DNA from: an uncultured Gemmatimonadales bacterium
GTDB taxonomy: Bacteria > Gemmatimonadota > Gemmatimonadetes > Gemmatimonadales > GWC2-71-9
DNA length: 64,000 bases
Assembly (NCBI GenBank): GCA_963697065.1
Contig: CAVOMQ010000003.1
Coordinates: 43,974-107,973 of the forward strand
Direction of reading: 5' to 3'
Part shown: positions 7,851-47,441 of the stretch, piece after piece
Position numbering within the stretch: position 1 is the stretch's first letter
Layout: each line of letters begins with the position of its first letter
The notes under the pieces: model-generated
Told to the model about the DNA's origin: nothing
Databases searched by the model: none
The model's input: only the letters and a program-made list of their open reading frames with translations
Position numbers and translations under genes: made by a program

Positions 7851-8098
7851 TGGTTACGGTACGGCCCGGTACCGTCGGGGTCAACCGGCGGACAGCACCC
7901 GAAGGATTGCGGCTTGGCCAGCGGGTTTCAAAATGATCCAGCGCCGCGGCTTGGACGTTTTCCGATGGGCGCTGAATCTCCGTGATCGTCACTCCCGCGC
8001 CGCGTCAGGCCCCGGCAACGGGTAGCCAACGACGTCGGCGGACGACGCCCGCATCGACGGCATCCCGCGCAGAATCAGGAAGGAGTCGAACGGATCGC

Positions 8099-9310
8099 TC
8101 ACCTCTCAGGCGCCAGCTTGTACACGCGAACTTCCGATTCGTTCGGATGGTACGTATAGCGTGCGACCAGATATCCGTTGGCGATCTGGAGCACCTCCAG
8201 GTCGCCCGGCATAACAGTCGTACCGAGGAACCGCCCGCTACGATCAAACACGTCCCAGGTGGCCGGGTCGCCCGTCACCGCCCACATCCGAGCCCAGAGG
8301 CGGTGCGCATCGTCAACCTTCAGCGCGGTGTAGGCGGGCTCCCGCGGAGGAAATCGAATCCATTCGAGTGCCAGGCTGTCGTCATGCCTGAGCACCGGAT
8401 CACTCCGCTGGAGACGCGCCCGCTTGAGTCGCCGCAGCAGCTCCGGTGTCACCGATCCGCGCTCCCGCCCGATCCGGATCAGGCCCAGCAGTCTACCGGT
8501 GGGAGCGCGCTGCTGTATCTCGAACGCCGAGCCGTCCGTGTAGTACCACCAGTCGTCATCCACCGCAATGGAGCCGATCTGGCCGAGTGGCGTCTGGCCG
8601 GCGACGCTGTAGTGCATGGCGAAGCCGAAGCGCTCGGCCCCGAAGAACGGGCCGAGCTCCGTCAGCTTTCCTTTGCGATCGACGTGATAGACGACAATCG
8701 TGTCGATGTCGGTCTGGCGATTCTGAGGCAGGAGCTGATTGTGCGTCGTGCCGATCATCTCGCCCGACGCGAACGCGCCGAGGATCGACAGGAACGGTCG
8801 TTCCCACCCCCCTCGGGGGAGCTTCGAGCGAATGTCGGGCGGGTTCTCGACGCGGCGGGTTTGAAGGACGGAACCCCTGCGGCTCAGTTGCATCAGCCGA
8901 TTGGCCACCCCATCCCATTCCACCACCGTACCACCGGCCATCGTGAAGAGATTCGACGGCCCTTCGCGCCCCGAGATGCCGACGACGTCGATGCCGAATC
9001 GGTAGCCACCGTCAGGCTTGAAGAAGGCGACGCGATCGTGGTCGAATTCCGCCACCACGACATTACCGTCCATCAGCCGCAGCGCGCCGGAGACGATACC
9101 GAGGTCAGCGTTGCCTTTGGCGCCCGGCCCGCCCAATGCGACAATCGGAGCCGGCTCGACTACTCGCCAGCTGTTCGTGTCCAATATTGGCGCGGCGTTC
9201 GAGACGATTCTCACCCCAGCGCTATCCCGGACGCGTGGCAGCTGTGCGTGGCACCGACCAAGCCATGCCGCCAACATTACGCTCGCGCATACGAAGCGGC
9301 TAAGGGCCAT
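8099..9310 (-). CDS. 6-bladed beta-propeller secreted protein
   Basis: Signal peptide, VRDSAGVRIVSN, GREGPS, VDDAHRLWAR..WDVFDRSGRFLG motifs. Confidence 0.7.
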   Translation of the reverse strand: MALSRFVCASVMLAAWLGRCHAQLPRVRDSAGVRIVSNAAPILDTNSWRVVEPAPIVALGGPGAKGNADLGIVSGALRLMDGNVVVAEFDHDRVAFFKPDGGYRFGIDVVGISGREGPSNLFTMAGGTVVEWDGVANRLMQLSRRGSVLQTRRVENPPDIRSKLPRGGWERPFLSILGAFASGEMIGTTHNQLLPQNRQTDIDTIVVYHVDRKGKLTELGPFFGAERFGFAMHYSVAGQTPLGQIGSIAVDDDWWYYTDGSAFEIQQRAPTGRLLGLIRIGRERGSVTPELLRRLKRARLQRSDPVLRHDDSLALEWIRFPPREPAYTALKVDDAHRLWARMWAVTGDPATWDVFDRSGRFLGTTVMPGDLEVLQIANGYLVARYTYHPNESEVRVYKLAPER

Positions 9311-10076
9311 GTCGTGCACTCTGCAGCACCCGCCGGACAGTGTCAAGCCCGTAATCGGTCTTCTCAGCGTCTTGCAAGTCCGGTCTAACAGTCCTCCCAA
9401 GGAGGCTTGCAACGAGCCGGTTCAATTGCTGGAAGGGCATCGCACCGGCAACCGGCAGTCCGTTGATGAACGACGTTGGCGTTCCAACAATGCCAAGTTG
9501 TGCGGCTTCCCGGGTATCCCGATTCACCCTGTCCTGATACATCCCGGATTGGACGCAAATGCTGTAGCGCCTCATGTCTGGAATACGGATGCTGTCCCCA
9601 ATGTCGTGCCATGGCTCGTGCGTTACTGCGGTCGCTCCGAAGCTGAACGCCGCTCGATAGTACTCCGGGAATCTCCCCTGATCGGCTGCGCACTGGCCGC
9701 CCTCGTGTAGCTGGAGCTCGGCAAGCCCGGGTTGGAATAGGAGGTTCTTGACAACAACGGCAACCACATCGGGGTAGCGCCGCCGGAGCTTCTCGATTGT
9801 GGCAGAAAAACTCACGCAATAGCCACAGGCGTAGTTCACAAACTCGACGATAACGACCGGCGCGTCGTCCGGGCCCATCCGGGGTCCTTCGGCGGCCATT
9901 TGATAGAAGAGCGTCGGGTCTATGCTTCCGTCGGGCAGCGAGGGCAACGAGAGCCGCTGCGCGCTGCGGCGCCGTTGATAGGCTGCAACCCGGTCTCGAA
10001 TGCCCAGGATAACCAGCCCGAGTGCGACGACATACAGAATCTTCGTCGCGCGGTTAAGCATCTTGGCGATTGGCAT
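9300..10076 (-). CDS. DsbA-family thiol-disulfide oxidoreductase (module 1)
   Basis: GPDDAPVVIVEFVNYACGYC and GIVGTPTSFING motifs; N-terminal TM anchor. Confidence 0.85.
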   Translation of the reverse strand: MPIAKMLNRATKILYVVALGLVILGIRDRVAAYQRRRSAQRLSLPSLPDGSIDPTLFYQMAAEGPRMGPDDAPVVIVEFVNYACGYCVSFSATIEKLRRRYPDVVAVVVKNLLFQPGLAELQLHEGGQCAADQGRFPEYYRAAFSFGATAVTHEPWHDIGDSIRIPDMRRYSICVQSGMYQDRVNRDTREAAQLGIVGTPTSFINGLPVAGAMPFQQLNRLVASLLGRTVRPDLQDAEKTDYGLDTVRRVLQSARHGP

Positions 10077-10091
10077 CTCAGAACGCCCGCC

Positions 10092-11207
10092 TCACCTATG
10101 CGTCGAGGCCGCCACCCGCCGACCAGAGCTTACGGCGGGATTGGCTTCCAGGCGATATTCGAAAATGCCTTCGCCGTTCTGACCTGCAGCGAAGAGTGTA
10201 GTGTCACCCGAGACAGCAATGGTACTCATCTCGTGGTTCAGCCCGATCACGTTGACCAACTGCCCATCCCAGTCGAAGACGTGTACATACCTGGCCGCGC
10301 GTACCCTCCCTCCGTGGGGGCCGTCGGTTCGGTGGCCGGCGAATAGCGCGTAGAGATAGCGCGACGTTGCGTCGCAGTCGATGTAGTAGAACCAATCAGC
10401 CTGAGCCCACAACGTGTGCCGACGCGGAGACATCGCCCAGTCTCCGTTTGAGGCAAATGGTACGCTTGCACGAACCACGAACAGACCAGCTGAGTCGAAG
10501 ATGTCGATTCGGCCCCCGAGCTGGTACAGCACCGCAAATCGACGTGCGACGGGACTGGCGCATGCTGCGAATCCCCCCGATGCGGCACGGCGAGCCAGCA
10601 GTGGTATTGAATCGGCTCCGAGAAGCGCTGCATTGTGCATGGCCAACAAGTGGCCACTCGTATCCGAAATGATGATTCGATTCGTATCCATGTCGCCGAT
10701 GCCGACGAGTCGGTTGCGGGCAAGCCAGAGCAAAGCATATACGTCGACGAAGGCGCTCGGTGGATGGAATATCGCATAGTCGGCCGTTGGGCGACCGGTC
10801 TCCCGCGTCATCCGCTTCAAACCGTCGTCGTAAGCCCAGATTCCGGCGTCATCACCCGGACGATGGCTGAATTGTGGCATCTTCTTGAAGTCACCGGGTC
10901 CTTCCCCATGCCGCCCCATCGAAACTGAGACCTCGCCGGTTGCAATATCCACAGCGTGCAAATAGGGATCTCCGGAGCGATCACCTACCCATAGGCGATC
11001 ACCCTGGACGCCGAGGTGTCCCGGGTCACCAATGATCGGATCGGACACGAGCAAGCGAGGTTCGGGATACTGCGGATGAAGGTCGGCGTGGGAAATCGCT
11101 GGTGTGCCGTCAGCAAGGTGGTCCAAAGGCCAGCCGGACAAGGTAGCGTGCCGACATCCGGTTGCGAGCAGGAGCGTAACTGGCCCAAGTACCCGGAGCG
11201 CCGTCAT
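10092..11207 (-). CDS. BF3164/TolB-like 6-blade propeller lipoprotein (module 1)
   Basis: Lipobox LLATGC; GRHGEGPGDF; YLYALFAG..YVHVFDWDGQ C-terminal motif. Start uncertain (11207 or 11309). Confidence 0.7.
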   Translation of the reverse strand: MTALRVLGPVTLLLATGCRHATLSGWPLDHLADGTPAISHADLHPQYPEPRLLVSDPIIGDPGHLGVQGDRLWVGDRSGDPYLHAVDIATGEVSVSMGRHGEGPGDFKKMPQFSHRPGDDAGIWAYDDGLKRMTRETGRPTADYAIFHPPSAFVDVYALLWLARNRLVGIGDMDTNRIIISDTSGHLLAMHNAALLGADSIPLLARRAASGGFAACASPVARRFAVLYQLGGRIDIFDSAGLFVVRASVPFASNGDWAMSPRRHTLWAQADWFYYIDCDATSRYLYALFAGHRTDGPHGGRVRAARYVHVFDWDGQLVNVIGLNHEMSTIAVSGDTTLFAAGQNGEGIFEYRLEANPAVSSGRRVAASTHR

Positions 11208-11305
11208 CCGCGTCGCCCTCGATCCGGCAGTCGCCAAGCCCCGGTCGGCAGAGCGCGCCTTTCGCTCTCCCGACCGGAGCCAAGCGGGAGCTTCAATCAG
11301 ACATG

Positions 11306-11581
11306 TCAATGGTTCCAGTAGGTGTCAAGATTGATGCCCGAGTGGAACGGGTCGCACCGCACGCTGATCGGGTCACACGTGTCACAGTTGCCGGCACTGC
11401 AGTAGCTGTTTTCCTCGTAAGTCCCCGATTGATCAGTGTGGACGCAGAGGTGGTTGGCTTCAGCCTCGCATAAGATCCCCTGAGTGGCATGCAGGACTGG
11501 CGTTCTTCCCGCAAACGTGGCCAATGCCAATGTGATGATTGCCGCTGCCGAGAATCGGACAGCCTCTTTCCATGTTTGCAT
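11306..11581 (-). CDS. Secreted 6-Cys peptide P1
   Basis: GGAGG RBS; Sec signal ending PVLHA; mature part C-x7-C-x14-C-x4-C-x2-C-x6-C. Confidence 0.75.
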   Translation of the reverse strand: MQTWKEAVRFSAAAIITLALATFAGRTPVLHATQGILCEAEANHLCVHTDQSGTYEENSYCSAGNCDTCDPISVRCDPFHSGINLDTYWNH

Positions 11582-11819
11582 TGTGCTACCCTCCGTGGTT
11601 GGTTGCTCTCACTAACGACGGATTTCGCAGGACCCCGACCGAGCTACGCGCCGATGGCTGGTTAACCGACGTAGGATCGAGAGACCGTGTCTCGTCAGCT
11701 ACGCGGCTTCCGGCGACTCAGGCGGATGAAGCGGCCTCCACTCAAGCGATGGATGGTGTGCCCTCGCCATGTCGTGAGTATGCCAAGCCCCATCTTGCGC
11801 GCCACGATGTCTCCGTCCG

Positions 11820-11914
11820 GTGAAACCTCGCACCCTCAACACTCACCCATTCCCCGGATTCCGCCAGACCAGAAAACAGTGCTTTCTGCTGTTTTTCGCC
11901 CAGTTTCGCCTCGA
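11820..11914 (-). promoter_or_regulatory. Conserved intergenic element between AraC-like regulator and cargo (copy 1)
   Basis: Non-coding match to 22215-22310; contains AAAACAG-N9-CTGTTTT on the minus strand. Confidence 0.5.
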
Positions 11915-12586
11915 TTACCGATCTGTTACATATCCACCCATGCGCAGGCCGACCTCCAATACCGGCTCCCACGCTCCCATCGCCACGAGCTGCCGCCAGG
12001 TCCGCCCGAAGTACCGGTGGCACCAACGCGATACCGTCTTGACGTCGACGGCGGCCTGCTCGGCCGCCACGGCCTGCGGTTGCGCGGCCGCGATCGCCCG
12101 CGCGATCAGCTCCACGCACGACCCAAGCGCCCTCCAATCGTGGGGCAGCCATGCGCCGTATTTCCGAAGCGATCGGCGCAGCGACTCGGCATCGGCCTTC
12201 GGATCGCGGATGTCGAAGAACAAGCTGGCGAGGCCGAGCGATGCCCTGAATGCGATATACGCTGCAACATCGGTCGCATCGGGAATCCGGCGCTGACCGA
12301 TTGCGATCCTCATTTCAGGGATTGTGTCCGAGACCTCGGCGCCAAATGGCGTGAGATGCATGGCCGGGGGACACAGCAGGTTGAGTGTCGCGGACGCAAC
12401 GGCGCGAGCGCCAAACAACACCGTCGGACACCATGGACTGGCGCGCCACTGATCGACGGCCTCGGCGACACGCACCAGATGATCGTCGTCGTCCGGGACC
12501 ACCAGCAGTGTACCCAGCGGGCGCGGCGCAGGAGGCCCCGCAACAACCGCCTCCAGCGCCCCGGGTAGCAGGCAGCATACGGTCAT
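11915..12586 (-). CDS. AraC-like transcription regulator, copy 1
   Basis: Two HTH-like segments (ESLRRSLRKYG..PHDW; AAEQAAVDVKTVSRWCHRYFG); paralog at 22311-22982; ATG (MTVCC) preceded by GAGGC. Confidence 0.65.
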   Translation of the reverse strand: MTVCCLLPGALEAVVAGPPAPRPLGTLLVVPDDDDHLVRVAEAVDQWRASPWCPTVLFGARAVASATLNLLCPPAMHLTPFGAEVSDTIPEMRIAIGQRRIPDATDVAAYIAFRASLGLASLFFDIRDPKADAESLRRSLRKYGAWLPHDWRALGSCVELIARAIAAAQPQAVAAEQAAVDVKTVSRWCHRYFGRTWRQLVAMGAWEPVLEVGLRMGGYVTDR

Positions 12587-12640
12587 CAGCCAATGCCTCG
12601 AGTCGTGATCGCCCCACGCCCGCGAGCGCAGCACACCGCC

Positions 12641-12695
12641 GTGGCGTGGCGTGGCGTGGCGTGGCGTGGCGTGGCGTGGCGTGGCGTGGCGTGGC
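12641..12695. repeat. Pentanucleotide SSR (GTGGC)11
   Basis: 11 perfect units counted directly. Confidence 0.95.
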
Positions 12696-12700
12696 GTATA

Positions 12701-12729
12701 ACTCTACCGTCCGGGGTAACGCCTGTCAA
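12701..12729 (-). promoter_or_regulatory. sigma70-type promoter TTGACA-N17-TAGAGT
   Basis: Read directly; the -10 box is 5 nt from the SSR. Confidence 0.75.
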
Positions 12730-12809
12730 TGAGGCCTCGCTGCAGTGAGGATCCGCGGCGTGTATGGTTTCATTGCGTTGACGACTTACACCGCGCGGGC
12801 TCCCCCACC

Positions 12810-13294
12810 TCACCCCTCCCCCCGATCCAGCACCCGGTACTGGATCGCCTCCCCCACATGCGCCGGCCCCACCTCGGCCGCCCCCTCCAGATCCGCCAGC
12901 GTCCGCGCCAGTTTGAGCACGCGGTGATATGCCCGCGCCGACAGCCCCAGCTTGACGATCGCCTGCTTCAGCACCGCGTCGGTCGCGGCATCGGTCCGCA
13001 CGAACTTCGCCAATTCGCGCGGCCCCATGTGCGCATTGGCATACACCCCGCGCACTTCCCGGAACCGCTCCAGCTGTCGCGCCGCGCCGCCTCCACCCGC
13101 TGTCGCACCACGGTACTCGACTCCGCCGCCTTGCGCGCCGTGAGATCGTCGTACGCCACCGGCGGCACGCTGAGGTGAATGTCCACCCGGTCGAGCAGCG
13201 GCCCCGAGATCCTGGCCCGATACCGCTGCACCGCCATCGGTGAGCAGCTGCACTGCCGCGAGGCGTCGCCCAGGTAGCCGCAGGGGCAGGGATT
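12810..13294 (-). pseudogene. comM: Orphan 3' end of comM/yifB, copy A
   Basis: [10 protein letters not shown]...[12 protein letters not shown], a direct repeat of 23211-23692; homology ends at GATT (13291-13294); 1-nt indel near 13083. Confidence 0.9.
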
Positions 13295-13725
13295 GGTTGC
13301 CAAACTACCGTTGCGGCTGACCGCGCCGACACCGAAGCCGGGTTACCCCAAGCAGTTCAAGCACTTAGGGGATCATCTGAGGGCCCGGCGGATTGACCTT
13401 GGGCTCCTGCAGAGAGAGGTGGCGGCTCGGATCGGCGTCGAGAAGGCGACACTGATGAACTGGGAATTGGGACACACCGCCCCAGCACCGGCCGCCTATC
13501 CGGCGATCATCGCATTCCTGGGCTGCGACCCGCGTCCCGATCCCCGCGACGGCGGGTGCGGTAATACGCCGAGCGCGGTTGACCCGAGGCTGGTCCTTGG
13601 CTGATCTGGCAGTCCAAGCGGGCGTGGATCCGGCGAGCGTGGCGCGAGTCGAGGTCGACACGAAGGGGGTGACGTCGCGAGTCCGGCAAGCGATCCGGCG
13701 GGTGCTGGGGCTGGCTTCGGTTTGA
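13293..13725 (+). pseudogene. Tandem double-HTH XRE regulator, frameshifted in the linker
   Basis: LGDHLRARRIDLGLLQREVAARIGVEKATLMNWE. Removing one C in GATCCCC (about 13545) continues into a second HTH, AVIRRARLTRGWSLADLAVQAGVDPASVARVE, with stop at 13725. Confidence 0.7.
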
Positions 13726-14037
13726 CCGCCGAATGGGCAGTCGATTGGCCCTCGACGCCGTCCGGTCAGCCTCACATTGTGCGGCCAGTAAGCGAGGCGT
13801 CGATGCTACAATCGAAAGCGGCGTTCAGATCGACGAGCTTGGCATCGTGCTGCGCCACAGTGTCCTTTCGCACCGCAACCAGCCTGGTCCTGAGCTGCCC
13901 AATGTTTCGCCACATCCGTTCTCCGGAGAGCGCCTGTGCAGCGGCGACACCGCTACTTGTCAGGCCGACCGCCGGGCCGGGCCTAGTTCAGTGCGAACTG
14001 CCCGGATTTTCCGGGGAGACATGAGTAACATCAAGCG

Positions 14038-14376
14038 TCAGTAACCGATCAAGTATCCGGCCGCGGCCCCGAGCAGGACACCAATCAGGACAATTCCGAT
14101 GACCGCCGCACCGGATCCACCGTTCTCGCCTGCGGCCGCACCGGCACCGGCGCCAATAGCCCCGCCGACGAGCCCGCCCAGGATCGCGCCGGCGATCGCA
14201 CCGCTATGGTGCGTTACCGAATCCGGAAGCACGCGCGAAGATAAATCCGACCGCCCGATCACTTGCGATTGAACTGGTTGACTCATCCCCAACCGGTCCC
14301 CACCAATCACCTGAGCGCTCGCGGGAGCCGCCAAGAAGAGGCTGATCACAACCACCCGCCAACACGTACGCAGCAT
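14038..14376 (-). CDS. Secreted/membrane protein with glycine-zipper-like segment
   Basis: Signal peptide (ISLFLAAPASA), then AIAGAILGGLVGGAIGAGAGAAAG and a C-terminal TM. Confidence 0.6.
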   Translation of the reverse strand: MLRTCWRVVVISLFLAAPASAQVIGGDRLGMSQPVQSQVIGRSDLSSRVLPDSVTHHSGAIAGAILGGLVGGAIGAGAGAAAGENGGSGAAVIGIVLIGVLLGAAAGYLIGY

Positions 14377-14421
14377 CAGTGAAGCTCCCATGCAGAAGGC
14401 CGAATCCTCCGCTCGGCGACA

Positions 14422-14967
14422 TCAGAACGCCCATGCGTCCAAACGGTCGGAATATGGTGAGGAGTTCGGTTCCGCGCCAGTCCAACCACCGAACCGCTCG
14501 CCCGTCCAATAGCACTCTTCGTAGCCATTATCCTCAAGGGATGGGTTGGTGGACGCAACGCAATCCATCAACGGATAGGAACTCGATCCCACATTCCGGG
14601 CCGGCAAAATCGATATTTGGATGTTTCGGTTCCCTTCACACACCTCATCAATATGACCGCCACCAAAGATGCCAGCGTTGCACTCAGACTCGCTCGCGTA
14701 ATTGGCATGCTTGTTCAATGAAACATGCACGACAGGTATCCCGCCGTGATGGCTGGCGTCGTACGACAGCGCCGTCGGATAGCCGTCGACAGGGCTTAGT
14801 TCATCGGGCATCATGCTGGCGCCATTCGTGTTCGGGACGGACGCCTGATCAATCCAATACAGTTCGTAGTGTCCATGCTGTGAATATGCTGCCTTATCCA
14901 AGACCCAGTGGTGAAACGTGGGTTCGTACCGCACATCAAGAACAATTGCTTCGGAGTCACCCCAATG
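14422..14967 (-). pseudogene. 5'-truncated Vps62/NPP1-like secreted protein remnant
   Basis: HWGDSE...AAYSQHG...VHVSLNKHANY resembles the HxGDWE / YxSxH / GxHAxY pattern; Cys-containing C-terminus; no signal peptide or plausible start. Confidence 0.5.
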
Positions 14968-15151
14968 GCTGGTCGAGTCGTTCGAGCCGCCCCGTGGCAA
15001 CGGCTTGCCAGAAACCCGCGAGGGCACCCACGTCTTTACACCGGATGATCTCGATCGGAAATGGCTGGCCGGGATCGTACCGCACCAGCTCGCCCGGCAA
15101 TACTCCGAGCTCGGGGCAAGGCTGCCGCACGCGGTAATGCGAGGCGTTCAT
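14957..15151 (-). CDS. Small hypothetical protein, paralog of 400-678
   Basis: HYRVRQPCPELGVLPGELVRYDPGQPFPIEIIR..FWQAVATG; promoter at 15181-15209. Confidence 0.5.
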   Translation of the reverse strand: MNASHYRVRQPCPELGVLPGELVRYDPGQPFPIEIIRCKDVGALAGFWQAVATGRLERLDQPLG

Positions 15152-15180
15152 GGGGGACAACCGGAGCGAGAGGTAAGAGG

Positions 15181-15209
15181 AGGATACGGTGCAGGCTTCC
15201 GGACGTCAA
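15181..15209 (-). promoter_or_regulatory. sigma70-type promoter TTGACG-N17-TATCCT
   Basis: Read directly, about 80 nt downstream of the comM copy B stop, facing into the cassette. Confidence 0.65.
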
Positions 15210-15286
15210 GTATCGGTTAGCGGCCGACGCAAACTGTTCGCCGGATCCCGGCCGAACCGTCCATCCCGCCGCTCCCGCGCGACGCC

Positions 15287-15772
15287 TCACCCCTCCCCCC
15301 GATCCAGCACCCGGTACTGGATCGCCTCCCCCACATGCGCCGGCCCCACCTCGGCCGCCCCCTCCAGATCCGCCAGCGTTCGCGCCAGTTTGAGCACGCG
15401 GTGGTATGCCCGCGCCGACAGCCCCAGCTTGACGATCGCCTGCTTGAGCACCGCATCGGTCGCGGCATCGGTCCGCACGAACCTGGCCAGCTCCCTGGGA
15501 CCCATGTGCGCATTGGCATACACCTCGCGCACTTCCCGGAACCGCCCCAGCTGTCGCGCGCGCGCCGCTTCCACCCGCTGCCGGACCACGGTACTCGATT
15601 CCGCTGCCTTGCGCGCCGTGAGATCGTCGTAGGCCACCGGCGGCACGCTGAGGTGAATATCCACCCGGTCGAGCAATGGCCCCGAGATCCTGGCCCGGTA
15701 CCGCTGCACCGCCATCGGCGAACAGCTGCATTGCCGCGAGGCGTCGCCCAGGTAGCCGCAGGGGCAGAGATT
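15287..15772 (-). pseudogene. comM: Orphan 3' end of comM/yifB, copy B
   Basis: [10 protein letters not shown]...VLDRGEG*, in frame throughout; homology to comM ends at GATT (15769-15772). Confidence 0.9.
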
Positions 15773-16207
15773 TGTTGCCAAACTACCGCTGCGACTGACG
15801 GCACCTACACCGAAGCCGGGTTACCCCAAGCAGATCAAGCACTTAGGGGACGAGATCAGGGCTCGGCGGATTGATCTTGGGCTACTGCAACGAGAGGTGG
15901 CGGCCCAGGTCGGCGTGGACACGGCCACAGTACGGAATTGGGAATTGGGGCACAGGGCGCCAGTGACAGCCGCCTACCCCGCGATCATCGCCTTCCTGGG
16001 CTACGACCCGGTGCCAACGCCAAGGATGCTAGGGGAAGTCTCATCCGACATCCTCGACTCATAAACGGGTGGACGGTTGGGCACCTCGCAGCCATGGCTG
16101 GGGTCGTTCCGGTAACCGTGTCTCGAATGGAACAGGACATCCCCGGAACGGCTCGACGAGCCACCCGGACGATCTGCCAGGCAATGGGAGTCGTCGAGCA
16201 CGTCTAA
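15773..16207 (+). pseudogene. Tandem double-HTH XRE regulator, second copy, frameshifted in the linker
   Basis: VAKLPLRLTAPTPKPGYPKQIKHLGDEIRARRIDLGLLQREVAAQVGV; second HTH (LINGWTVGHLAAMAGVVPVTVSRME) lies in another frame after about 16040. Confidence 0.7.
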
Positions 16208-16241
16208 CCGGGCCAACGCCAGGGACGCACACCCCCACCAA

Positions 16242-19200
16242 TCAGCGCGGCCGCTGATTGGTGCGGAGCTGCTGCCGCTGACCGGGTGTGAGGACGCTCG
16301 TCGCATTCGCGTAGTACCGGAGGTCCAGGGAGGACAACGCCTGCACCACCGGTTCCGCTCTTGCACGCAGTTCGGCATCCCCAAGCCGGGGCCCCGCGCT
16401 CACAACGAACAGGGCCAGAGGTGCGAGGAGCGCATCGGTTTCGCGCTGGTATGCTGCGCTCAACGTGGCTAGCGAGTCGAGCTGACGGCCGGTCAGGGCG
16501 ATAGCCGCGCCAGTCGTGATTATCCGTGATATCGGGTCTATTACCCACTCACGCCGCAGTGCGCTCATCGCCTGGCTGAGCCGCGTCGAATCACTCCCGT
16601 GCGCCGGTAAGCCAAGCGCCTTGAGGAGCGCGTGCGACTGGCCCTGCGGCCCGAAGTCATATTGGGCACCGAGCCGGATCTGAAATGGTGGGAAGTGCTT
16701 GCGAGTATCGCCGTACATCAGCGATTGACGAAAAGGGGGTTGACCGTGTAGCGGAATGACTCGGTAGCCGGATCGAAGCCCGTCACATACAGGAGTCGCG
16801 GATCCGGCTGCTGGACCCCAGAGAATCGCCCGAATGGCGTGCTCTGCAGATGCAGCAGGCTTACGATAGCGCCTCCAGCGTTTAGAAGCTGCGTAGTAAC
16901 TCTGAGTCGATCGGTCAGGCCAAATGAGGCTGGTGGGGCAAAATCGAGGTTAAGATCCAACTGAATTTGCCATGAGCTTCGGCAGCTCTCCGCCCCGGCA
17001 ACTCGCCCGATCTGCGCCTGAAGACATGCCCTCGCCGGAGTGGGCGCCGTTCTGAGCACACTGCGCATCTGCGCAGCCAAAGCGGAGTCGCTGACCTTTG
17101 CGGGGTCGAAGATGAATGCGGCGTCATCGCCCGATATATGGTCGCCGTTGACGTCGCCAGCGACCACCGGCGTGAATGGAATTCCTGACGTCATCTGGAT
17201 CCGAGCGCCAAGGGTAAACCACCAGACGCGATACCCAAAGGATCCGACCTATCAGCCGGTGGACGGGCCGATCATTGATCACCGTTTGCACGGCACGAGG
17301 ATCCTCCGGCGTACCCCGGCGTTGGACTTGGTCCAGGTTGAGGGAATACGTGACGTCGAGTGGGATATTCCCAAAGAGGGCTTCAGTTCCGACGTGCACC
17401 TCGACTTGCTCTGCCACCCCGTTCAAGTCCGACACCCACCGGGTCACGCTGGCGAATCTAGGATCCACCCGCGCAGTCCCCGGACCGATCAGCCCGGTCG
17501 TTGGATCGATGCCGGCCGGATCTGCGAAGACCGGACGTCCATCTTCCTGCTGCAGCCGGAACACCGGGGCTGCCGGAAGATTGAGATCGGTGAACGACTC
17601 GATGTGGCGTCGCAGCGCCAGGGCGACCTGCGGCTGCACCCCCCATTGGCCAAGCCGAAAGCCGGTCCCGACCGATGCCTTCCACATCAGGGGTGGGCTG
17701 TATCGGGGGTCAAGCAACTGTACGGACGGTACGCTCGCGGCGAATGCCGGCATCCCAGCACTGTCTGCGCAGGTTGCCGGCGGAGGGCCCGCCTGCCAAT
17801 TGGCGGCTGGAACTGCCGGCCCCACGCACGACAAGCTCTCGGGCGCACCCCGCAGGCCGGTATTCGCGCTGATGCCATCGAGTCGGCTCGGGGACACGGT
17901 TCCCCAATAGGCACCGAGGCTTCCGTAGACGACCTGACCGACCGGGCCGACGTTCTGGACAGTCACATCGTTTGGCCCCAGTACGCCCGCCATGTTTGTC
18001 ATCGTGTTGGTGCCAGGAATTCGCACCCGAACGAACGGCACCTGGCCCTTCGGTCGGTGCACGATCCAGGCGATTCCAATGCGCGGGGTGAGTTCGATCA
18101 CAGCAGGGACGTGATCCGTCCGGTACCCGAACACTGACTCGACAACCGCGTTCAACGGTGGGGTTGCGCCAACCGTGAGGTAGTCAGCGCGTAATCCAGC
18201 GTCAACACTGACCCGCCGGGAGGCTTCCCAGAGGTCCGCGATCCAGACGCTCGGATGCCACGTGACGACGCTCTGGCTGCTCGGATCCAGGAGTCGCGAG
18301 TACGCTCCGGGCTGGTTTTGCTCGAGTTCGGCGAGCGACAGGTAGGCGAACGTGCCGTTTGGATTCGCACCGTTCTCGGCTCGCGTCCGCTCGATCTGCA
18401 AATCCTCCCCCAATCGGACGTGGTGAACATTGCCGTAAAGCTGGCGGGCGAGTTCGTCACGCACTTCCACGCGGAGGGTCGAAGCGTCACTCTGCGCGCC
18501 CCCACCGCCGAATTGCACCGTCGTGCGATCCTGACTGCGCCGTGTCGAATACTGTACCGATCAACACGGATCCGGTCGGGGTCGCAAGCAACGGCTCTGT
18601 ACGGCGCGACGACCGCGTGACAGCAGCCCGGAAATCGTTGACAAAGCCACCCAGATAATTCAGCGCTGTCAGCGAATACCTGTTGACATCATCTCGCCGG
18701 GTAACGGCCGTCGTTGGATAGGCGGCAGTTCCCACGCCTCCGCCGCTCTCGCGATGCCAAGTCGGCCAAGCCGAAAGGGTGACCCGATTCGTTGACCCCG
18801 GTTCCCAATCGACACTGAAGAATCCAGCTGCATCGAGCGTCTGGTCCGACCCAACACCGCGGCTCGGACGCAACGGAATGCCGTGCTCGGACAGCGCGGT
18901 TGAGATGCTCGTAATCGAATCGAGCGCCAGGCCTCGCTCGGCGAGCAGTGGTTCTGGCGCATCGAGAATCGACCGCAGCGGCTGAGATTGGAGCATCGCG
19001 GTCCAGGAAGCAAAGAAATGCCCATCCAGCCACGGGATCGGTCCGGAAGCTGCGCCCGATGACAGGAATTGCCGTGATGCGGGAAACGGCGACGCCGGGT
19101 CCGTCCAGGCGACACGGGGGTCGCTGTACGCCGCCCGCCCGACGGCCGTGGCCGTATTCGAACCTCGCTTGAGCGTTACATCCAGTTCGGCGCCCGGATT

Positions 19201-19851
19201 CTGGCTATGAGCGACATCGGCCGTCGTGCTCGCGTAACGGATTGCCGCGATTGCGTCCGGCGGCAGCAGCCTTGCGTCGGCGCGCATGCCATCCACGACG
19301 ACCGCGTTCTGGTCTGCCGGCGCACCCAACAGACTGCTGCCGGAGTCCGTCACGGACGTCTGCCCCAGGGCGTCAAGCAGTTCGTTCAGATCGCCGGCTT
19401 GATTCAGGATCAATCGCCGGGTGATCACCAGATTCTCTGTGCCGCCGACCGCAGGCCGAAGCCGATCGGATGGGGTAGCGATGTGGTTCGTCGTTGCAAA
19501 TAGATCGGGGAGCTTGAAGGGCGCGGACCGAAGCATGGTGTCGGCGACAATGCGTGACGCCGCTGAAGAAGCACGAGCGGTCCAGCGAACCGGAACGTAG
19601 CCGATCTTTCGGACCAGCAGTACCACACTTGCGGCTCCGTCGAACAGCACAGCCCGATATGACCCGGTCGAGTTCGTGTGGGCGATCTGTCGCTCCGCCG
19701 CGCTCTGTACCGAGACTTCAGCATCCAGGATCGGCTGCCGCAACGAATCGGTAATCCGACCTTCGACGACAGTTGGTGCCTGCGCCTTGGCTGGGTACGC
19801 CAGTGAACATACCAATCCCAAAGTGGTGAGGCCGCGCGACAGCAGCACCAT
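16242..19851 (-). pseudogene. TonB-dependent receptor with carboxypeptidase-regulatory-like N-domain (Oar-like), split into 4 ORFs
   Basis: VEGRITDSLRQPILDAEV..RKIGY N-domain; barrel motifs (DAGLRAD, PRIGIAW, VAGDVNGD, QIRLG). Frameshifts near 18500, 17150 and 16730 may be assembly errors. Confidence 0.75.
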
Positions 19852-19853
19852 CG

Positions 19854-21011
19854 TCAGTGGCGAGGCAATCCGCTCACCCGGTAGCGAACAAGAGTCGCCC
19901 CCTTTGGGAGGACGCGGATGCCGACAAGTGTCGCGCCGCTGACCGCCTTCAGCATGACGTCGCTCGGCAGCTTCACCTGCCCAATCAGATCCCCGCTTGG
20001 GTCAAGAACCGACCACGCTCGCTCGGACCCCTTTCCGTACATCTCCACCCAGACGGACCCATCGTCGGAGACCAGCAGTGCCTGCAACGGCTGGTGGAGG
20101 CGAGCTGGAGAAGCCCGCAACGCACTGTCGATCTGTCGGTTGCGCCCGGGGAGTCGCTCTTCGTCGATCACCGCCGCGATGCCACTATCGAGCTCCGGCG
20201 CTGTGACCGGCGTCATACTGGTCTGAAAACGACACGCGTACGCAGTGTCACCCATTGCGTCCGTTCGGACGACCGTGAACCAACCGGAATCCGGGCCCGT
20301 CATGATTCCCCGGGCATTCACGACGGTCCTGCCATTCGCCGAGATGGCGGTGTAGGGAGGACGGCAGTAGGGGATGGGAATCCAGGAGCCATCCGACAGG
20401 GACTGCTCGCAGAAGACCAACCCGCTTCGGACTGATGCCGCGACGCTCCGATACGAACCATCCGGTGCCGAGACGAGAAGCACCGACGCAGTGCGTTCGA
20501 CGTCACTTCGCAGCGCCGGAATATTCTCCAAGATCAGAAGATCGCCATTGGGCAGATATCTGATTACGCTTGGACCGAACAAGCCGTTGTGAGCCTTCGG
20601 CTGCACGCCGGGGGGTCCCTGAACTGTGCGGGGGACTGGCATTGTGCGGGCGACCGATCCCCGTGTATCGAACAGCGTCAGTCGGGCGAGCCGGTTGTCG
20701 TAAGTCCAAATCGAGTCGCCGCGCCATCCGGCCGATGGGCTCGCTATGAACTGGCCGGGCCCATCACCTTGGGTTCCGACCGTTCGCACCCGAGTGCCGG
20801 TAGAATCCAATACGTAAAGGGAGTAGTGGAATGGACCCGTCAGGAGCAACGAACCATTAGGTCCCAAGGTGACGTAGGCAGTCGAATCGAAACCATACCG
20901 CGAGATGTCGATCGAGAGATCCGAAGCAACGCCAAGCGCCGGCGGCACTTGCGCCGAAGCAGAACGAAGGAGCCCGATGACAACCCCCGCAAGGAGGGTC
21001 GGGATTCGCAT
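19854..21011 (-). CDS. 6-bladed beta-propeller secreted protein (module 2)
   Basis: Signal peptide; VGTQGDGPGQF, GDSIWTYD, VSDDGSVWV..WSVLDPSG motifs. Confidence 0.7.
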   Translation of the reverse strand: MRIPTLLAGVVIGLLRSASAQVPPALGVASDLSIDISRYGFDSTAYVTLGPNGSLLLTGPFHYSLYVLDSTGTRVRTVGTQGDGPGQFIASPSAGWRGDSIWTYDNRLARLTLFDTRGSVARTMPVPRTVQGPPGVQPKAHNGLFGPSVIRYLPNGDLLILENIPALRSDVERTASVLLVSAPDGSYRSVAASVRSGLVFCEQSLSDGSWIPIPYCRPPYTAISANGRTVVNARGIMTGPDSGWFTVVRTDAMGDTAYACRFQTSMTPVTAPELDSGIAAVIDEERLPGRNRQIDSALRASPARLHQPLQALLVSDDGSVWVEMYGKGSERAWSVLDPSGDLIGQVKLPSDVMLKAVSGATLVGIRVLPKGATLVRYRVSGLPRH

Positions 21012-21166
21012 CAATTTGTCCCCCGCCGCGCCACACACAGGAGTCGCCTAGTCCGCTGCCAGCGCCATTGGAGATGCGCGTGAGGAGCTGGACCGCGGTG
21101 TGCCAGCCCCCCCCGCGAATAGTAAAGCATGATGCGCCTGAACGCCGGCGACGAGACCACCGGTGA

Positions 21167-21463
21167 TCAGTAGATGCAGTGGTTCCCGTACCCAGAGCCC
21201 ATGTCCGAGCCATCTGGGGCGTAACAATCTGAAAAGTACTCGCAGTACGGTGCCTGCTCCTGCACGTCGCTCGAGCAGCCCCATTCGAGCGAGACGTCGA
21301 CGCACAACTGATGAGGATCGTCTGGACAGTCATCTCCCGCCTGGCATGCGTCGAATGCCATGCAGCCACCACCGCCCTGAGTAGCCAGTGCCGGCGTTGA
21401 GAAGTACGCCAGCGCAATAACTGAACTGCTCAACACAAGCAACAACTTCTGTCGAACTGTCAT
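21167..21463 (-). CDS. Secreted 8-Cys peptide P2
   Basis: GGAGG RBS; signal ending TPALA; mature part C-x5-C-x5-C-x7-C-x8-C-x10-C-x5-C-x15-C, acidic. Confidence 0.75.
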   Translation of the reverse strand: MTVRQKLLLVLSSSVIALAYFSTPALATQGGGGCMAFDACQAGDDCPDDPHQLCVDVSLEWGCSSDVQEQAPYCEYFSDCYAPDGSDMGSGYGNHCIY

Positions 21464-21505
21464 CGTTCCCTCCCGTTGAGTTGAATGATCGCTGCGCGCC
21501 GCGCT

Positions 21506-22186
21506 TTACGTTGACCGAGAACTTTGCCCAGCGGCCCTATGTAGGACGCGACGTACAATTTCGTCCAACCGCGCACTATCGAGAGCGCCAGTATAACGAA
21601 GCCCGTCGATGACAAGGGTCGGCGTCGCGTGAACCCCGGCTCGAACCGCCGCTATTGAATCCAGCGTGATCGCAGAAACAGGCGTCGATCGGTTGACGCA
21701 CGCAGCAAATGCGCCAGAATCCGTCACGCCAGCGTCGCGGGCGAAATCGGCAAAAGACTTCAGGCCCAGCGAATCCTGCTTCTGATACAATTCGTCATAC
21801 ATTGCCTCAAAACGATTCTGCGCTGCTGCGCATTCCGCGGCCCGGGCGCTAGCGTATGCGAAGCGGTGATATGGCAATGGGTAGTTCCGGAAAATGAGAG
21901 CAACTTGGCTGGGATACTCTGCATGAATTGCTCGAAATGAAGCAACAGCGAACGCACGGCAGGCCGGGCACTCGAAGTCACCGAACTCAATGATTGTCAC
22001 CGGCGCATGCAAGGGACCGATCCTGTGGCCGGCTGCGGCAAAGGTGAGCCAGTCGGAGATCTTCGTCGGCGCTTCCACCAGGGCTCTTGCACCCGCAGGC
22101 TTAGGCCAAAAAGTGCGCTTCACGCTGAGTCCGGTGGTGAAGACTGCGCAAACCGCTACCACGCCAATGACGACATTCGTCCTCAC
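21506..22186 (-). CDS. DsbA-family oxidoreductase (module 2)
   Basis: GPLHAPVTIIEFGDFECPAC, FRNYPLPYH, GVHATPTLVIDG; N-terminal TM. Confidence 0.85.
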   Translation of the reverse strand: MRTNVVIGVVAVCAVFTTGLSVKRTFWPKPAGARALVEAPTKISDWLTFAAAGHRIGPLHAPVTIIEFGDFECPACRAFAVASFRAIHAEYPSQVALIFRNYPLPYHRFAYASARAAECAAAQNRFEAMYDELYQKQDSLGLKSFADFARDAGVTDSGAFAACVNRSTPVSAITLDSIAAVRAGVHATPTLVIDGLRYTGALDSARLDEIVRRVLHRAAGQSSRST

Positions 22187-22214
22187 TTCGTTTCGTTCGA
22201 CGAAGTCTCTGCGG

Positions 22215-22310
22215 GGTGAGACTCGCCGCACTGAACACCTATCAATTCCCCGGATTCCGCCATACCAGAAAACAGCGCTTTCTGCTGCTTTTCGCCCAGT
22301 CACGCCTCGA
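22215..22310 (-). promoter_or_regulatory. Conserved intergenic element between AraC-like regulator and cargo (copy 2)
   Basis: Matches 11820-11914 (e.g. TCCCCGGATTCCGCCA.ACCAGAAAACAG.GCTTTCTGCTG.TTTTCGCCCAGT). Confidence 0.5.
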
Positions 22311-22982
22311 TCACCGATCTGTTACATATCCACCCGCCTGCAGAGCGGCCTCCAGCGCCGCCTCCCACGCATCCATTGCCACGAGCTCCCGCCAGGTCAG
22401 CCCGAAGTACCGGCGGCACCACCGCGAGACCGTCTTGACGTCCACGCCCGCCAGCTCCGCCGCCATGGCCTCCGTATGCCCGGCCGCAAGCGCCCGTGTG
22501 ATCAGCTCCAGGCAGCTCCCGAGTGCCCGCCAGTCGTGTGGCAGCCACGCTCCATACCTCCGGAGCGATCGGCGCAGCAAATCGGCGTCGACCGCAGAAT
22601 CCCGTAAGTCGGAGTACAGGTTGGCGAGACCGAGCGACGTCCTGAACGCGATGTAGGCGGCAATATCGGTGGCGTCGGGCATTCGGCGCTGACGGATTCC
22701 GTTCCTGATTTCGGCGACCGGGGGCAAAACCTCACCGCAAAGCGGAGTTACATGCATTGCAGAGGGAACCAGCAAGTCCAGGATCCGAGGCGCAACGTTA
22801 TGGGCGGCGACCAGGACCGTCGGGCACCATGGGCTGGCGCGCCATTGATCGACGGACTCCGCGACTCGCGCCAAATTGTCATCGCCGCCCGGAACCACGA
22901 GTACTGTGCCCAGCGGGCGCGGTGCGGGCGGCCCGGCGTCAATCGCCGTCGGTTCGCCGGGTAGCAGGCAACACACGGTCAT
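22311..22982 (-). CDS. AraC-like transcription regulator, copy 2
   Basis: Colinear paralog of 11915-12586 (MTVCCLLPG...GGYVTDR). Confidence 0.65.
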   Translation of the reverse strand: MTVCCLLPGEPTAIDAGPPAPRPLGTVLVVPGGDDNLARVAESVDQWRASPWCPTVLVAAHNVAPRILDLLVPSAMHVTPLCGEVLPPVAEIRNGIRQRRMPDATDIAAYIAFRTSLGLANLYSDLRDSAVDADLLRRSLRRYGAWLPHDWRALGSCLELITRALAAGHTEAMAAELAGVDVKTVSRWCRRYFGLTWRELVAMDAWEAALEAALQAGGYVTDR

Positions 22983-23036
22983 CTGTCGATGCCTCGGCTT
23001 GCGGCCACCAACCTCCCGCGAGCGCATCACACCGCC

Positions 23037-23104
23037 GTGGGTGGCGTGGGTGGCGTGGCGTGGCGTGGCGTGGCGTGGCGTGGCGTGGCGTGGCGTGGCG
23101 TGGC
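23037..23104. repeat. Pentanucleotide SSR: 11 perfect GTGGC units (23050-23104) plus 3 flanking units
   Basis: Counted directly; flanking units GTGG, GTGGC, GTGG at 23037-23049. Confidence 0.95.
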
Positions 23105-23109
23105 GTTCA

Positions 23110-23138
23110 ACGATACCGGCTGGTGCAACCGGTGTCAA
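23110..23138 (-). promoter_or_regulatory. sigma70-type promoter TTGACA-N17-TATCGT
   Basis: Read directly; same position relative to the SSR as the promoter at 12701-12729. Confidence 0.75.
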
Positions 23139-23210
23139 GCCGGCACCGCGCCAGCGCAGTTCCGCGGCAGTTACGTGTTGATCGGTGCCCGGATTTCCGG
23201 AACTGATCCG

Positions 23211-24741
23211 CTACTCCCCCCGATCCAGCACCCGGTACTGGATCGCCTCCCCCACATGCGCCGGCCCCACCTCGGCCGCCCCCTCCAGATCCGCCAGCGT
23301 CCGCGCCAGTTTGAGCACGCGGTGGTATGCCCGCGCCGACAGCCCCAGCTTGACGATCGCCTGCTTGAGCACCGCGTCGGTCGCGGCATCGGTCCGCACG
23401 AACTTCGCCAATTCGCGCGGCCCCATGTGCGCATTGGCATACACCCCGCGCACCTCCCGGAACCGCTCCAGCTGTCGCGCGCGCGCCGCCTCCACCCGCT
23501 GCCGCACCACGGTACTCGATTCCGCCGCCTTGCGCGCCGTGAGATCGTCGTAGCCACCGGCGGCACGCTCAGGTGAATGTCCACCCGGTCGAGCAGCGGC
23601 CCCGAGATCCTGGCGCGATACCGCTGCACCGCCATCGGCGAACAACTGCACTGCCGCGTCGCGTCACCCAGGTAGCCGCAGGGGCAGGGATTCATCGCCG
23701 CCACCAGCAGGAACCTCGCCGGGTACATGAGGCTCATCGCTGCACGCGCAATCGTCACCTGCCCGTCTTCCAACGGCTGCCGCAGCACCTCCAGCACATT
23801 GCTCGGCAACTCCGCCACTTCGTCGAGAAAGAGCACGCCGTGATGCGCCAGCGACACTTCGCCCGGGCGCGGAATCGCCCCGCCGCCGATCAATCCGGCA
23901 TACGAGACGGTGTGATGCGGCGCCCGGAACGGTCGGCGCGTCACCAGCGCCTGCCCCGCCGGCAGCAGCCCCGCCACGCTGTGGATCCGCGTCACGTCGA
24001 GCGCCTCGGCCAGCGACATCGACGGCAGGATGGTCGGCAGCCGCCGTGCCAGCATCGTCTTGCCCGCCCCCGGCGGACCGATCAGCAGCAGGTTGTGCGC
24101 TCCCGCCGCCGCCACCTCCATCGCCCGCTTGGCCGCGCGCCTGCGCCTTGACCTCGGCGAAGTCGACGTCAGCACTGCGGCAGCTCGTCCATCAGCGCGG
24201 CCGCGTCGGTGCGCACCGCGGCCAGCGGCGCCTCGCCGGTGACATGCCGGCAGACTGCCATCAGATTCGCGGCTCCCCGCACCGCCACGCCGCCCACCAC
24301 CGCCGCTTCTGCCACGTTCGCCTGCGGCAGGATCAGCTCGTCGCAGCCGAAGCCCCGCGCCGCCAGCGCAATCGGCAGCGCACCGCGAATTGGCCGGAGA
24401 TCACCCTCCAGACCCAGCTCACCAAGCAATAGCGAACGATGCAGCCGATCGTCGGGAATCTGCCCGCTCGCGGCGAGGATTCCGATGGCGACGGCCAGGT
24501 CGAACGCACTGCCCCGCTTCTGCACGTCGGCCGGCGCGAGGTTGACGGTGATGCGGCGCAGCGGCAACTGGAAGCCGGCGTTCTGGAGGGCGGCGGCGAC
24601 ACGTTCGCGCCCTTCCTTCACGGCGCCCACCGGCAGCCCCACCGTGGTGAACGACGGCAGCCCGTTGGCGATGTCGATCTCGACGTCGACGGCGAGCGCG
24701 TCGACGCCGAGGACAGTGGCGGAATGGATGCGGGAAAGCAG
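23211..24741 (-). CDS. comM: ComM/YifB Mg-chelatase-like AAA+ ATPase with three single-base frameshifts
   Basis: [14 protein letters not shown] start, [36 protein letters not shown]. Indels near 24172, 24140 and 23552; CTG follows the GGAGG RBS. Confidence 0.9.
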
Positions 24742-24855
24742 AACGGCCTCCGAGCAGGGAGGCCGGGAGGATCAGGTCTTCAATGGCGCGCAGCGAATCG
24801 AACGGACGCCGGCGGGTTCAAAGAAACGCAACGTTCGATGCGATCCGGCCGCCGT

Positions 24856-47307: not shown

Positions 47308-47441
47308 GGTTCCTCCTGGAGGACTGAACTATAGCCCGGGCCGGACCAAGCCTGGCGCTCCCTGCCGGCCAATGCCCGACTGACGCCATTCTCGCCCGCG
47401 TCAGATCCTGATCCGAGCGCGCACCACGCGTTCCAATCCGC

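Follow-up and report, generated by a model that had tools for sequence, protein, structure and literature searches.

Recombinase-less cassettes stacked at comM in an uncultured Gemmatimonadales bacterium: putative passengers of large serine recombinase elements

Background

In staphylococci, SCCmec and the ccr-less pseudo-SCC cassettes (SCC, staphylococcal cassette chromosome) form composite islands at the 3' end of rlmH (orfX). We describe here an arrangement that invites comparison with them, located at the comM gene in a 64,000-nucleotide stretch of an uncultured Gemmatimonadales bacterium (assembly GCA_963697065.1, contig CAVOMQ010000003.1, positions 43,974 to 107,973; hereafter the window, to which all unlabelled positions refer). 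It is a tandem array of units, each starting with a copy of the comM 3' end, and we moderately favour the view that these units are passengers of elements moved by a large serine recombinase (LSR). Canonical LSRs recombine attP with attB, and attL with attR in the presence of a directionality factor. Recombinase genes that contain their own attachment site are found in archaeal fuselloviruses, where integrase genes of the SSV1 type contain attP and are split by integration.

Tandem islands behind a single-copy gene were reported at ssrA of Dehalococcoides, with a serine recombinase of about 540 aa encoded on the reverse strand at attL; some of these islands have no integration module and were discussed as cis-mobilizable (PMC3146451, where CcrAB is also mentioned). 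Likewise, the cis-mobilizable elements (CIMEs) related to ICESt1 and ICESt3 keep attL and attR, are devoid of integration and transfer genes and are stacked at the 3' end of their target gene (PMC5704250). As for comM, it encodes a helicase for heterologous DNA integration in naturally transformable bacteria and is a favoured target of mobile genetic elements (MGEs), whose insertion blocks their own removal (PMC4774983, PMC11472951). It is known as a target mainly for disrupting elements that insert into it and inactivate it (PMC4774983; PMC11472951), among them the Tn7-like AbaR (PMC11014353).

Results

Structure of the array

Gene comM was located on the minus strand, from about 24741 to 23211. 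Its last ~475 bp were present as three direct repeats on this strand (copies A, B and C), as shown by a repeat search and a three-way alignment, with 87-95% identity among copies and start-to-start spacings of 2,478 and 7,920 bp. A previous reading, made from the sequence alone, had noticed this triplication and stated that the orphan copies break at one base. The alignment placed the break at an identical CTG (13287-13289, 15765-15767 and 23685-23687), from which homology runs to the stop codon. This CTG, hereafter the crossover, sits in AAT-CCC-TGC-CCC-TGC-GGC (codons NPCPCG). In comM direction, copy C was preceded by the comM 5' part and copies A and B by a conserved end, called XRE end, and a promoter-like TTGACA box was found behind every copy. 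The order initially proposed, i.e. comM with 3' end C, unit C and its XRE end, then copy B, unit B and its XRE end, and lastly copy A, was borne out by the repeats and the three-way alignment (Table 1). Copy A is possibly the original comM tail. At the other extremity of the gene, the interval that separates the upstream stop (24774) from the conserved ComM N-terminus contained no ATG, GTG or TTG, a situation also encountered in a related genome (G068; genomes and contigs are designated below by G and C numbers, the genome of the window being G000), and comM may start at CTG 24741 or at a later TTG.

Complete elements with a large serine recombinase

Two genomes displayed a comM gene split by a complete element. 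In G290, from the same order but another family, about 34 kb were inserted at the same base of comM. Contig C14 successively displayed the comM 5' part (5-976), an LSR gene with Resolvase and Recombinase domains (942-2495), the body of the element, an XRE open reading frame (ORF; 34622-34966) and the comM 3' end. Both junctions share TG (attL, ...AATCCG TG TTGTTGCG; attR, ...GAAACTC TG CCCGTGCGG), and the half-sites CGGTAGTAGGGCAATGAAAC and CGGTAATAGGGCAACGCAAC were found, inverted, at the two ends of the element only. When these ends were joined, the LSR gene ran in frame into the XRE ORF (...AVIGQRNN followed by RVSLPYYRWSLIAARPRPGYPKELK...), yielding a 662-aa protein with two HTH_3 domains (HTH, helix-turn-helix). 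Genome G064, which belongs to the genus of the window, carried a 35,447-bp element on its contig C14 with the same organization (comM 5' part/LSR ... tail/comM 3' end). Its LSR was 64% identical to that of G290, and joining the ends likewise gave an in-frame LSR-tail ORF. In these full elements, the LSR gene stands next to the comM 5' part, with its reading frame extending over the attachment site. The association between comM and LSRs put forward in the sequence-only reading is right.

The LSR belongs to a large family: soil and groundwater data yielded over 5,000 homologues at E <= 1e-30. Most of them were ~500-520 aa long without HTH, and some were unsplit proteins of 633-657 aa with HTH_3, one of which was encoded on a contig together with a type IV secretion system (T4SS) coupling protein. 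The XRE ORF at 13293-13604 aligned to residues ~506-580 of a 656-aa LSR-HTH protein (47%, E 2e-22), and a 150-aa tail from G018 to residues ~499-588 (46% identity, E 1e-25). Both aligned from their own first residues on, the LSR-HTH proteins matched by the window and G018 tails being 646-656 aa long and the match ending at 580-590. Since joining the ends of full elements creates an in-frame LSR-tail ORF, the XRE end corresponds to the cut-off C-terminal double-HTH tail of an LSR. On sequence grounds, it is the orphan tail of a split LSR gene together with a P-type half-site, and not an independent regulator gene.

The attachment sites point in the same direction. The P arm reads CGGTAGTTTGGCAAC(A/C)AATCC + CTG in the window, as compared with CCGGTATTTGCGCAATGAATCC + CTG in G064 and CGGTAGTAGGGCAATGAAACTC + TG in G290. 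Junctions of the window contained only this P half of the family, the other half being the B' of comM, and the comM position was that of the full elements. Judged from these half-sites, every XRE/comM 3' junction displays the attR form.

A Logan contig displayed, in this order, T4SS genes, a 531-aa LSR, RadC, a ComM-like paralogue and then an XRE/comM tail. Within the order, 5 out of 301 genomes possessed a homologue of the L077-type LSR, that of G290 being the sole one at comM. In L077 itself (15239-16695; SRR13378643_175741), an LSR/T4SS element with RadC, a 263-aa ComM-like AAA+ paralogue (33% identical to the host ComM) lies just inside the element end that abuts the host comM tail, and might either stand in for the disrupted comM or interfere with it.

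Absence of a recombinase from the units

Pfam scans of the ORFs of units B and C revealed no tyrosine or serine recombinase, transposase or relaxase, as had been surmised at first sight. The same holds more widely: neither PF00589 nor PF00239 was matched near 25 XRE ends in 11 of the 52 genomes of the genus, which supports the initial view that the units are non-autonomous. Among 171 unit ORFs from seven genomes, Pfam detected no recombinase beyond passenger transposases of insertion sequences (IS). A tblastn search with three LSRs found nothing in G000 or in the array loci, and no LSR remnant was seen in about 20 units.

The advice to seek recombinases elsewhere in the genome was also followed. 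The whole of G000 was without a PF00239 match and displayed five PF00589 matches, all at unrelated loci on another contig than the window, so that no such integrase lies in or beside the array, contrary to what is expected of a tyrosine recombinase island. These five proteins (XerC, XerD, IntI, the integrase of a tRNA-Pro island and a contig-end fragment) were rejected as movers. In G018, assembled as a single 3.33-Mb contig that bears the label chromosome 1, the only canonical recombinases were XerC, XerD and IntI.

Several other candidates were considered and discarded. The IS21, IS3 and IS110 transposases of some units are located away from the junctions. An AraC-like protein of 239/275 aa, suspected to be a hidden resolvase-like recombinase, displayed only weak HTH matches and is absent from several units, and the extra C-terminal domain of the XRE protein turned out to be a second HTH_3. 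A serine recombinase of G010 is of the LSR#2 type and not of the attachment-site-spanning type. LSR#2 designates a second, internal LSR of the G290 comM element (C14:22249-23850), and its homologue in G010 (C3:204105-205657, 44-66% identical) is frameshifted and near a contig end; G010 also harbours comM arrays.

The initial reading had conceded that it would fall if the units had simply lost a recombinase gene still found in relatives. This is not what the comparison showed, since the comM tail of passengers stands where full elements carry the LSR, so that a plain deletion cannot convert one into the other.

Units as discrete insertions

The view that the units are discrete and mobile was corroborated at two sites other than comM. 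Unit D of G000 (7.4 kb, C1:531760-539157) extends from comM 3' copy D (C1:531760-532248) to an XRE end, with an IS21 inside. Its junctions have only CTG in common with the target, and its site is empty, colinear and uninterrupted in G018 and G068. Reciprocally, an orphan unit of G018 (comM tail, AraC-like gene, propeller and DsbA) is absent from contig C2 of G000, where the site shows a P-arm-like motif. A relic of another XRE end was found at C2:61222. To the right of the junctions at C1 and C2:61222, the flanking sequences (GACGAATCC and CAACGAATCG) resemble the inner P' half-site CAACGAATCC.

The comM downstream region was compared among relatives, as had been suggested. In G068, the array comM/unit B/copy A/AraC-like gene was 95-100% identical to the window and unit C was absent. 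The cargo of unit B was 100% identical, whereas the flanking backbone was only 85-86% identical, a discrepancy that argues for a recent cross-species transfer of the whole comM locus, presumably by homologous recombination between the G000 and G068 lineages. The alignment joins 11699-24832 of the window to G068 C6:196500-203300 (L070 10534-17335) and includes the 95-100% comM block; a ~1.6-kb insert was seen in G068 within the 201-aa cargo ORF of unit B. Unit C is missing from an otherwise matching array, and within the genus (52 genomes) its cargo is unique to G000. The variable and apparently newest unit is therefore the one adjoining the comM 5' part, in agreement with the polarity first proposed. 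Both loss in G068 and gain in G000 are compatible with this difference, comM tails being fine-scale mosaics.

The repair of comM by the units, also part of the original proposal, found support in two observations. Values of dN/dS between comM tails were 0.03-0.2, differences being mostly synonymous, and G068 possesses an intact comM of 483 codons that ends in a unit-borne tail.

Distribution of the family

Multiple comM tails were recorded in G018, G010, G013, G017, G033 and G035. Most of these arrays share the XRE/tail junction, the extra copy of G035 being devoid of one. The 25 XRE ends mentioned above were complemented by junctions in metagenome contigs. Cargo in units of seven genomes included DsbA, propellers, ORF6N, nSTAND3, SMODS+SAVED and radical SAM proteins, and a 34.7-kb contig from JGI carried at least three units with GmrSD, a methylase and peptidases. 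When genomes and metagenomes were scanned with the junction pattern, only further recombinase-less junctions were retrieved, and viral contigs yielded nothing.

Organization of the window units and neighbouring features

In comM direction, unit C comprises copy C, a promoter-like box, (CCACG)14, an AraC-like HTH gene, DsbA, a Cys-rich 98-aa ORF, a beta-propeller, an outer-membrane receptor-like gene in four frames and the LSR tail. Module 1, behind copy A, starts in a similar manner. In G018 and G068, this position was occupied by diverged or different genes, backbone synteny being back at about 7330-7890, and module 1, which has no distal XRE end, may be a hypervariable native region and not a unit.

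Table 1. Location of the comM array and associated features in the window
Feature	Position	Strand	Remarks
comM 5' part	23688-24741	-	Lon-like and AAA+ Mg-chelatase domains; ends at crossover
Crossover core CTG, comM 5' part/copy C junction	23685-23687	-	predicted attB form (B-O-B')
Unit C, 7,920 bp	15765-23684	-	from copy C to LSR tail
comM 3' copy C	23211-23684	-	left end of unit C; currently completes comM
AraC-like HTH regulator, unit C	22311-22980	-	53% identical to the gene after copy A (11915-12634)
DsbA/Thioredoxin_4 cargo gene, unit C	21506-22303	-	Pfam
Six-bladed beta-propeller-like cargo gene, unit C	19854-21038	-	no Pfam match; tblastn homologues in other units
Outer-membrane receptor-like gene, unit C	16242-19851	-	split over four ORFs
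Orphan LSR tail (XRE), unit C	15771-16061	+	97 open codons from crossover; no in-frame start codon
P-type half-site and core, unit C/unit B junction	15765-15794	-	TCGCAGCGGTAGTTTGGCAACAAATCTCTG; predicted attR form
Unit B, 2,478 bp	13287-15764	-	copy B, two cargo ORFs, LSR tail
comM 3' copy B	15287-15764	-	sole copy with unbroken frame
201-aa cargo ORF, unit B	14422-15027		
117-aa Gly-rich membrane ORF, unit B	14038-14391		
Orphan LSR tail (XRE, HTH_3/HTH_31), unit B	13293-13604	+	ORF starts at junction
P-type half-site and core, unit B/copy A junction	13287-13316	-	CCGCAACGGTAGTTTGGCAACCAATCCCTG; predicted attR form
comM 3' copy A	12810-13286	-	terminal copy; one-base deletion
Module 1	7900-12809	-	promoter-like box, (CCACG)11, AraC-like gene, propellers, DsbA; no distal LSR tail
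AraC-like gene, module 1	11915-12634		
Propeller gene, module 1	10092-11309		
DsbA gene, module 1	9300-10076		
Propeller gene, module 1	8099-9412		

Pentanucleotide arrays, perfect or nearly so, separate the promoter-like box (12729-12701, TTGACA-17-TAGAGT) from the AraC-like genes behind copies A and C. On the plus strand, they read (CGTGG)11.6 at 12640-12697 and (CGTGG)14.6 at 23036-23106. They could act as a phase-variable switch of the cargo regulator. A comparable repeat-rich stretch was observed in contig C1 (L001 17700-18100). Outside the comM region, the window displayed a second tandem arrangement (47209-55166), in which 47209-47798 and 51775-52291 are 76-79% identical, while 51679-51779 and 55066-55166 form a 94% identical repeat. 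Elsewhere in G000, the tRNA-Pro integrative element (C1:2341226-2345306; L031 6226-10306) encodes a 470-aa tyrosine integrase and a 744-aa primase/helicase-like protein.

Discussion

A passenger model

The interpretation to which we give moderate preference is that the array consists of stacked recombinase-less passenger cassettes of LSR-moved integrative, and probably conjugative, elements that insert into comM. By analogy, the units would be LSR-less passengers comparable to the ccr-less pseudo-SCC cassettes. Their ends carry attachment sites of the family, they are devoid of integration and transfer genes, and they show insertion polymorphism with exact ends. The units would be moved in trans by an LSR of this family, none being encoded by G000 itself.

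According to this model, the LSR would insert full elements into comM at the TG of ...AAT CCC TGC CCC.... In the circular form, its gene continues in frame into the double-HTH tail, which integration cuts off. Passengers differ from full elements in that a comM 3' end with its promoter-like box occupies the place of the LSR gene. Insertion of a passenger would thereby re-create an intact comM together with a fresh attB-like site beside the comM 5' part, where the next unit can enter.

The passenger circle, in turn, would carry P-O-B' (an attR-type site, O being the crossover core, P and P' half-sites of the element, B and B' those of comM) and not a true attP. A candidate pairing is that of this circle with an attL-type site, i.e. 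insertion via the excision mode, and such an attR x attL-type pairing would agree with the P'-like flanks seen at C1 and C2:61222. At comM, it would make the passenger land with the comM 5' part on one side and a resident helper on the other, restoring comM, and later loss of the helper, for instance by recombination between tails, would leave arrays like that of the window. Another possibility is a permissive enzyme, similar in this respect to CcrAB. RecA exchange between the tails clearly takes place too, as shown by their mosaic structure, and units are probably shuffled and deleted through these 475-bp repeats.

Several observations weigh against this model. Under canonical LSR rules, an attR-type circle should not enter attB, and the model does not account for a comM tail in place of the LSR end. 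Neither G000 nor the single-contig genome of G018 yielded an LSR of this type, and within the genus 50 of the 52 genomes were without one; in most carriers the helper is thus not at hand and the units may now be fixed. Many LSR tails are truncated or contain stops, and the mosaic make-up of the comM tails suggests that homologous exchange is at work too. Finally, no circular form or excision product was seen among the short-read contigs that hold the stretch, all of only 2-5x.

A more specific version of the passenger model can be tentatively put forward, although we consider it rather unlikely. It is a helper-dependent shuttle, in which passengers would enter by attR x attL-type recombination and leave by attB x attP, the tail being a directionality switch. 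A passenger would land beside a helper and repair the comM gene that the helper has broken. The double-HTH tail, present on the LSR in the circular form only since attP lies inside the LSR gene, would then be a built-in switch of direction.

Other explanations

The most serious rival has a small but appreciable chance of being correct. It regards the units as fixed scars, that is, full LSR elements, or composites with captured comM-downstream DNA, that lost their recombinase side by deletion or tail recombination and are now inherited and exchanged as ordinary chromosomal DNA. The rarity of the LSR in the genus (50 of the 52 genomes are without it) and the frequent truncation of tails agree with such a history. 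So do the left part of unit C, which resembles the native comM-downstream region of another lineage, and the transfer between lineages of a single high-identity tract of 6.8 kb comprising comM, unit B and copy A. Yet, not a single one of about 20 units retained an LSR remnant, the units are small (2.5-10 kb) and invariably end at one precise base, the otherwise 95-100% identical array either has the whole of unit C or none of it, and both unit D and the orphan unit of G018 are precise insertions at non-comM sites.

A purely homology-driven process, in which RecA loops units out via the ~475-bp tails and re-inserts them in Campbell fashion, the LSR sites being only historical, is less probable still. 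The repeats are long enough for it, the copies are fine-scale mosaics of one another and most carriers have no recombinase at hand. Such a process cannot yield the C1 insertion, however, whose target shares only CTG with it, and leaves the P'-like flanks of the secondary junctions unexplained.

That the host IntI (C1:1754163-1755179) or XerCD moves the units is hardly credible: although these are the sole canonical recombinases of G018 and the layout recalls an integron, IntI is equally present in genomes without arrays, integron attC sites are GCCTAAC...GTTAGGC hairpins whereas comM junctions have no GTTRRRY where the crossover lies and, compared with shuffled sequences, show no better folding (z-scores 0 to -2.3), and the dif candidate ACGTATAAGATAGATTATGTTAAGT is unlike the comM junction. 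The comM junction, which does not mimic dif, is accordingly not the attachment site of an integrative mobile element exploiting Xer (IMEX). A supposed third Xer protein was also rejected as mover: it is the integrase of the integron, which has a canonical attC array, and the attC signature is missing from the comM junctions. The term integron-like, used in the sequence-only reading, consequently holds for the layout but not for the sites, the true integron being elsewhere in the genome. This chromosomal integron of G000 (C1:1754163-1755179 and downstream; L030 4164-9600) encodes an IntI with the ALARKYP...WQWVFP insertion, followed by at least four cassettes in IntI orientation (a trypsin-like protease, a TIR protein and others) with attC GCCTAAC...GTTAGGC between them. 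Among dif-like sites of G000, ACGTATAAGATAGATTATGTTAAGT (C1:2276081, minus strand) is the single best.

An assembly artefact, the long-read assembler having concatenated two strain haplotypes with one unit each, is just as improbable. The genome is indeed metagenome-assembled (5 contigs, 3.18 Mb, 68% GC) and contains indel errors, but 15523-15829 has an exact match in an independent short-read contig from Logan, which runs from the XRE end of unit C into copy B. Only a tandem arrangement contains this junction. Tandem structure, on which doubt had been cast at the outset, is thus favoured over mis-assembly. Moreover, comparable arrays occurred in G018 (on one contig), G010, G013, G017 and a JGI contig, and further short-read contigs span the comM 5' part/copy C junction and the left junction of unit D.

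Sequence errors may nevertheless have affected the reading frames. Relative to the intact 483-codon gene of G068, comM of the window differed by three single-base indels (24173, 24139 and 23553). The first two are single-base insertions in the comM 5' part, and the third reflects the absence from copy C of one G (23552/23553) that copies A and B and G068 possess. In short-read contigs of public soil runs, the G lacking at 23552 was present, and position 18527, the meeting point of two ORFs of the receptor-like gene, differed by one base. With both changes present in short reads, the comM frameshifts are probably long-read consensus errors or strain variants, and not proof of a dead gene.

Comparison with known systems

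As with SCCmec and pseudo-SCC cassettes, an LSR targets the end of a conserved gene, recombinase-less cassettes share its sites and stack, and the target gene stays intact; SCC tandem stacks likewise occur beside or without a recombinase-bearing element. The comM system differs from them in that the crossover lies ~160 codons inside the gene, so that each passenger must carry a 475-bp gene tail, and in that full elements disrupt the gene and passengers repair it. Furthermore, the LSR gene spans attP and sheds a double-HTH tail on integration, and the hosts are uncultured soil Gemmatimonadales. In the ssrA islands, the repeat is 20 bp of ssrA instead of a 475-bp coding tail, and no split recombinase was reported there. 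CIMEs are decayed integrative and conjugative (ICEs) or mobilizable (IMEs) elements of the tyrosine recombinase type, whereas the units described here, whose LSR tail and P site do derive from a full element, contain no decay remnants and have as their left end a gene tail, which deletion cannot produce.

The full elements of G064 and G290 split comM, and in this respect resemble the MGEs known to inactivate it. Passengers, in contrast, restore the gene, and the enzyme is an LSR and not a Tn7-like transposase. The SSV1 parallel concerns the recombinase ORF, which spans attP, so that integration leaves an enzyme cut short and, at the opposite end, an orphan fragment; in SSV1 this is a tyrosine recombinase of an archaeal virus, while here it is a bacterial LSR from which only the C-terminal HTH tail is removed. 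Lastly, as in integrons, cassettes pile up at a fixed entry with the newest nearest to it, and the recombinase lies outside the cassettes. Unlike integrons, no IntI-adjacent attI and no attC hairpins are present, and the units are multigenic, 2.5-10 kb long and have their own promoter-like boxes.

Conclusions

Three features of this family appear new: passengers that repair their target gene by means of a long coding tail forming one of their ends, an LSR gene with attP inside it and a double-HTH tail that is lost on integration, and the size that the family reaches in soil bacteria. Within the genus, two kinds of elements use one and the same comM site, full LSR elements that break the gene and small recombinase-less cassettes that mend it. 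As mending regenerates the entry site, cargo can pile up without limit. This cargo, here and in related arrays, includes DsbA, propeller surface proteins, CBASS (cyclic oligonucleotide-based antiphage signalling system), GmrSD and methylases. The split-gene design of the LSR could be a new form of directional control in serine integrases, a class of genome-engineering tools. If the helper-dependent shuttle proved true, it would be of an undescribed type, and comM would be an open-ended gene-capture platform in soil bacteria.

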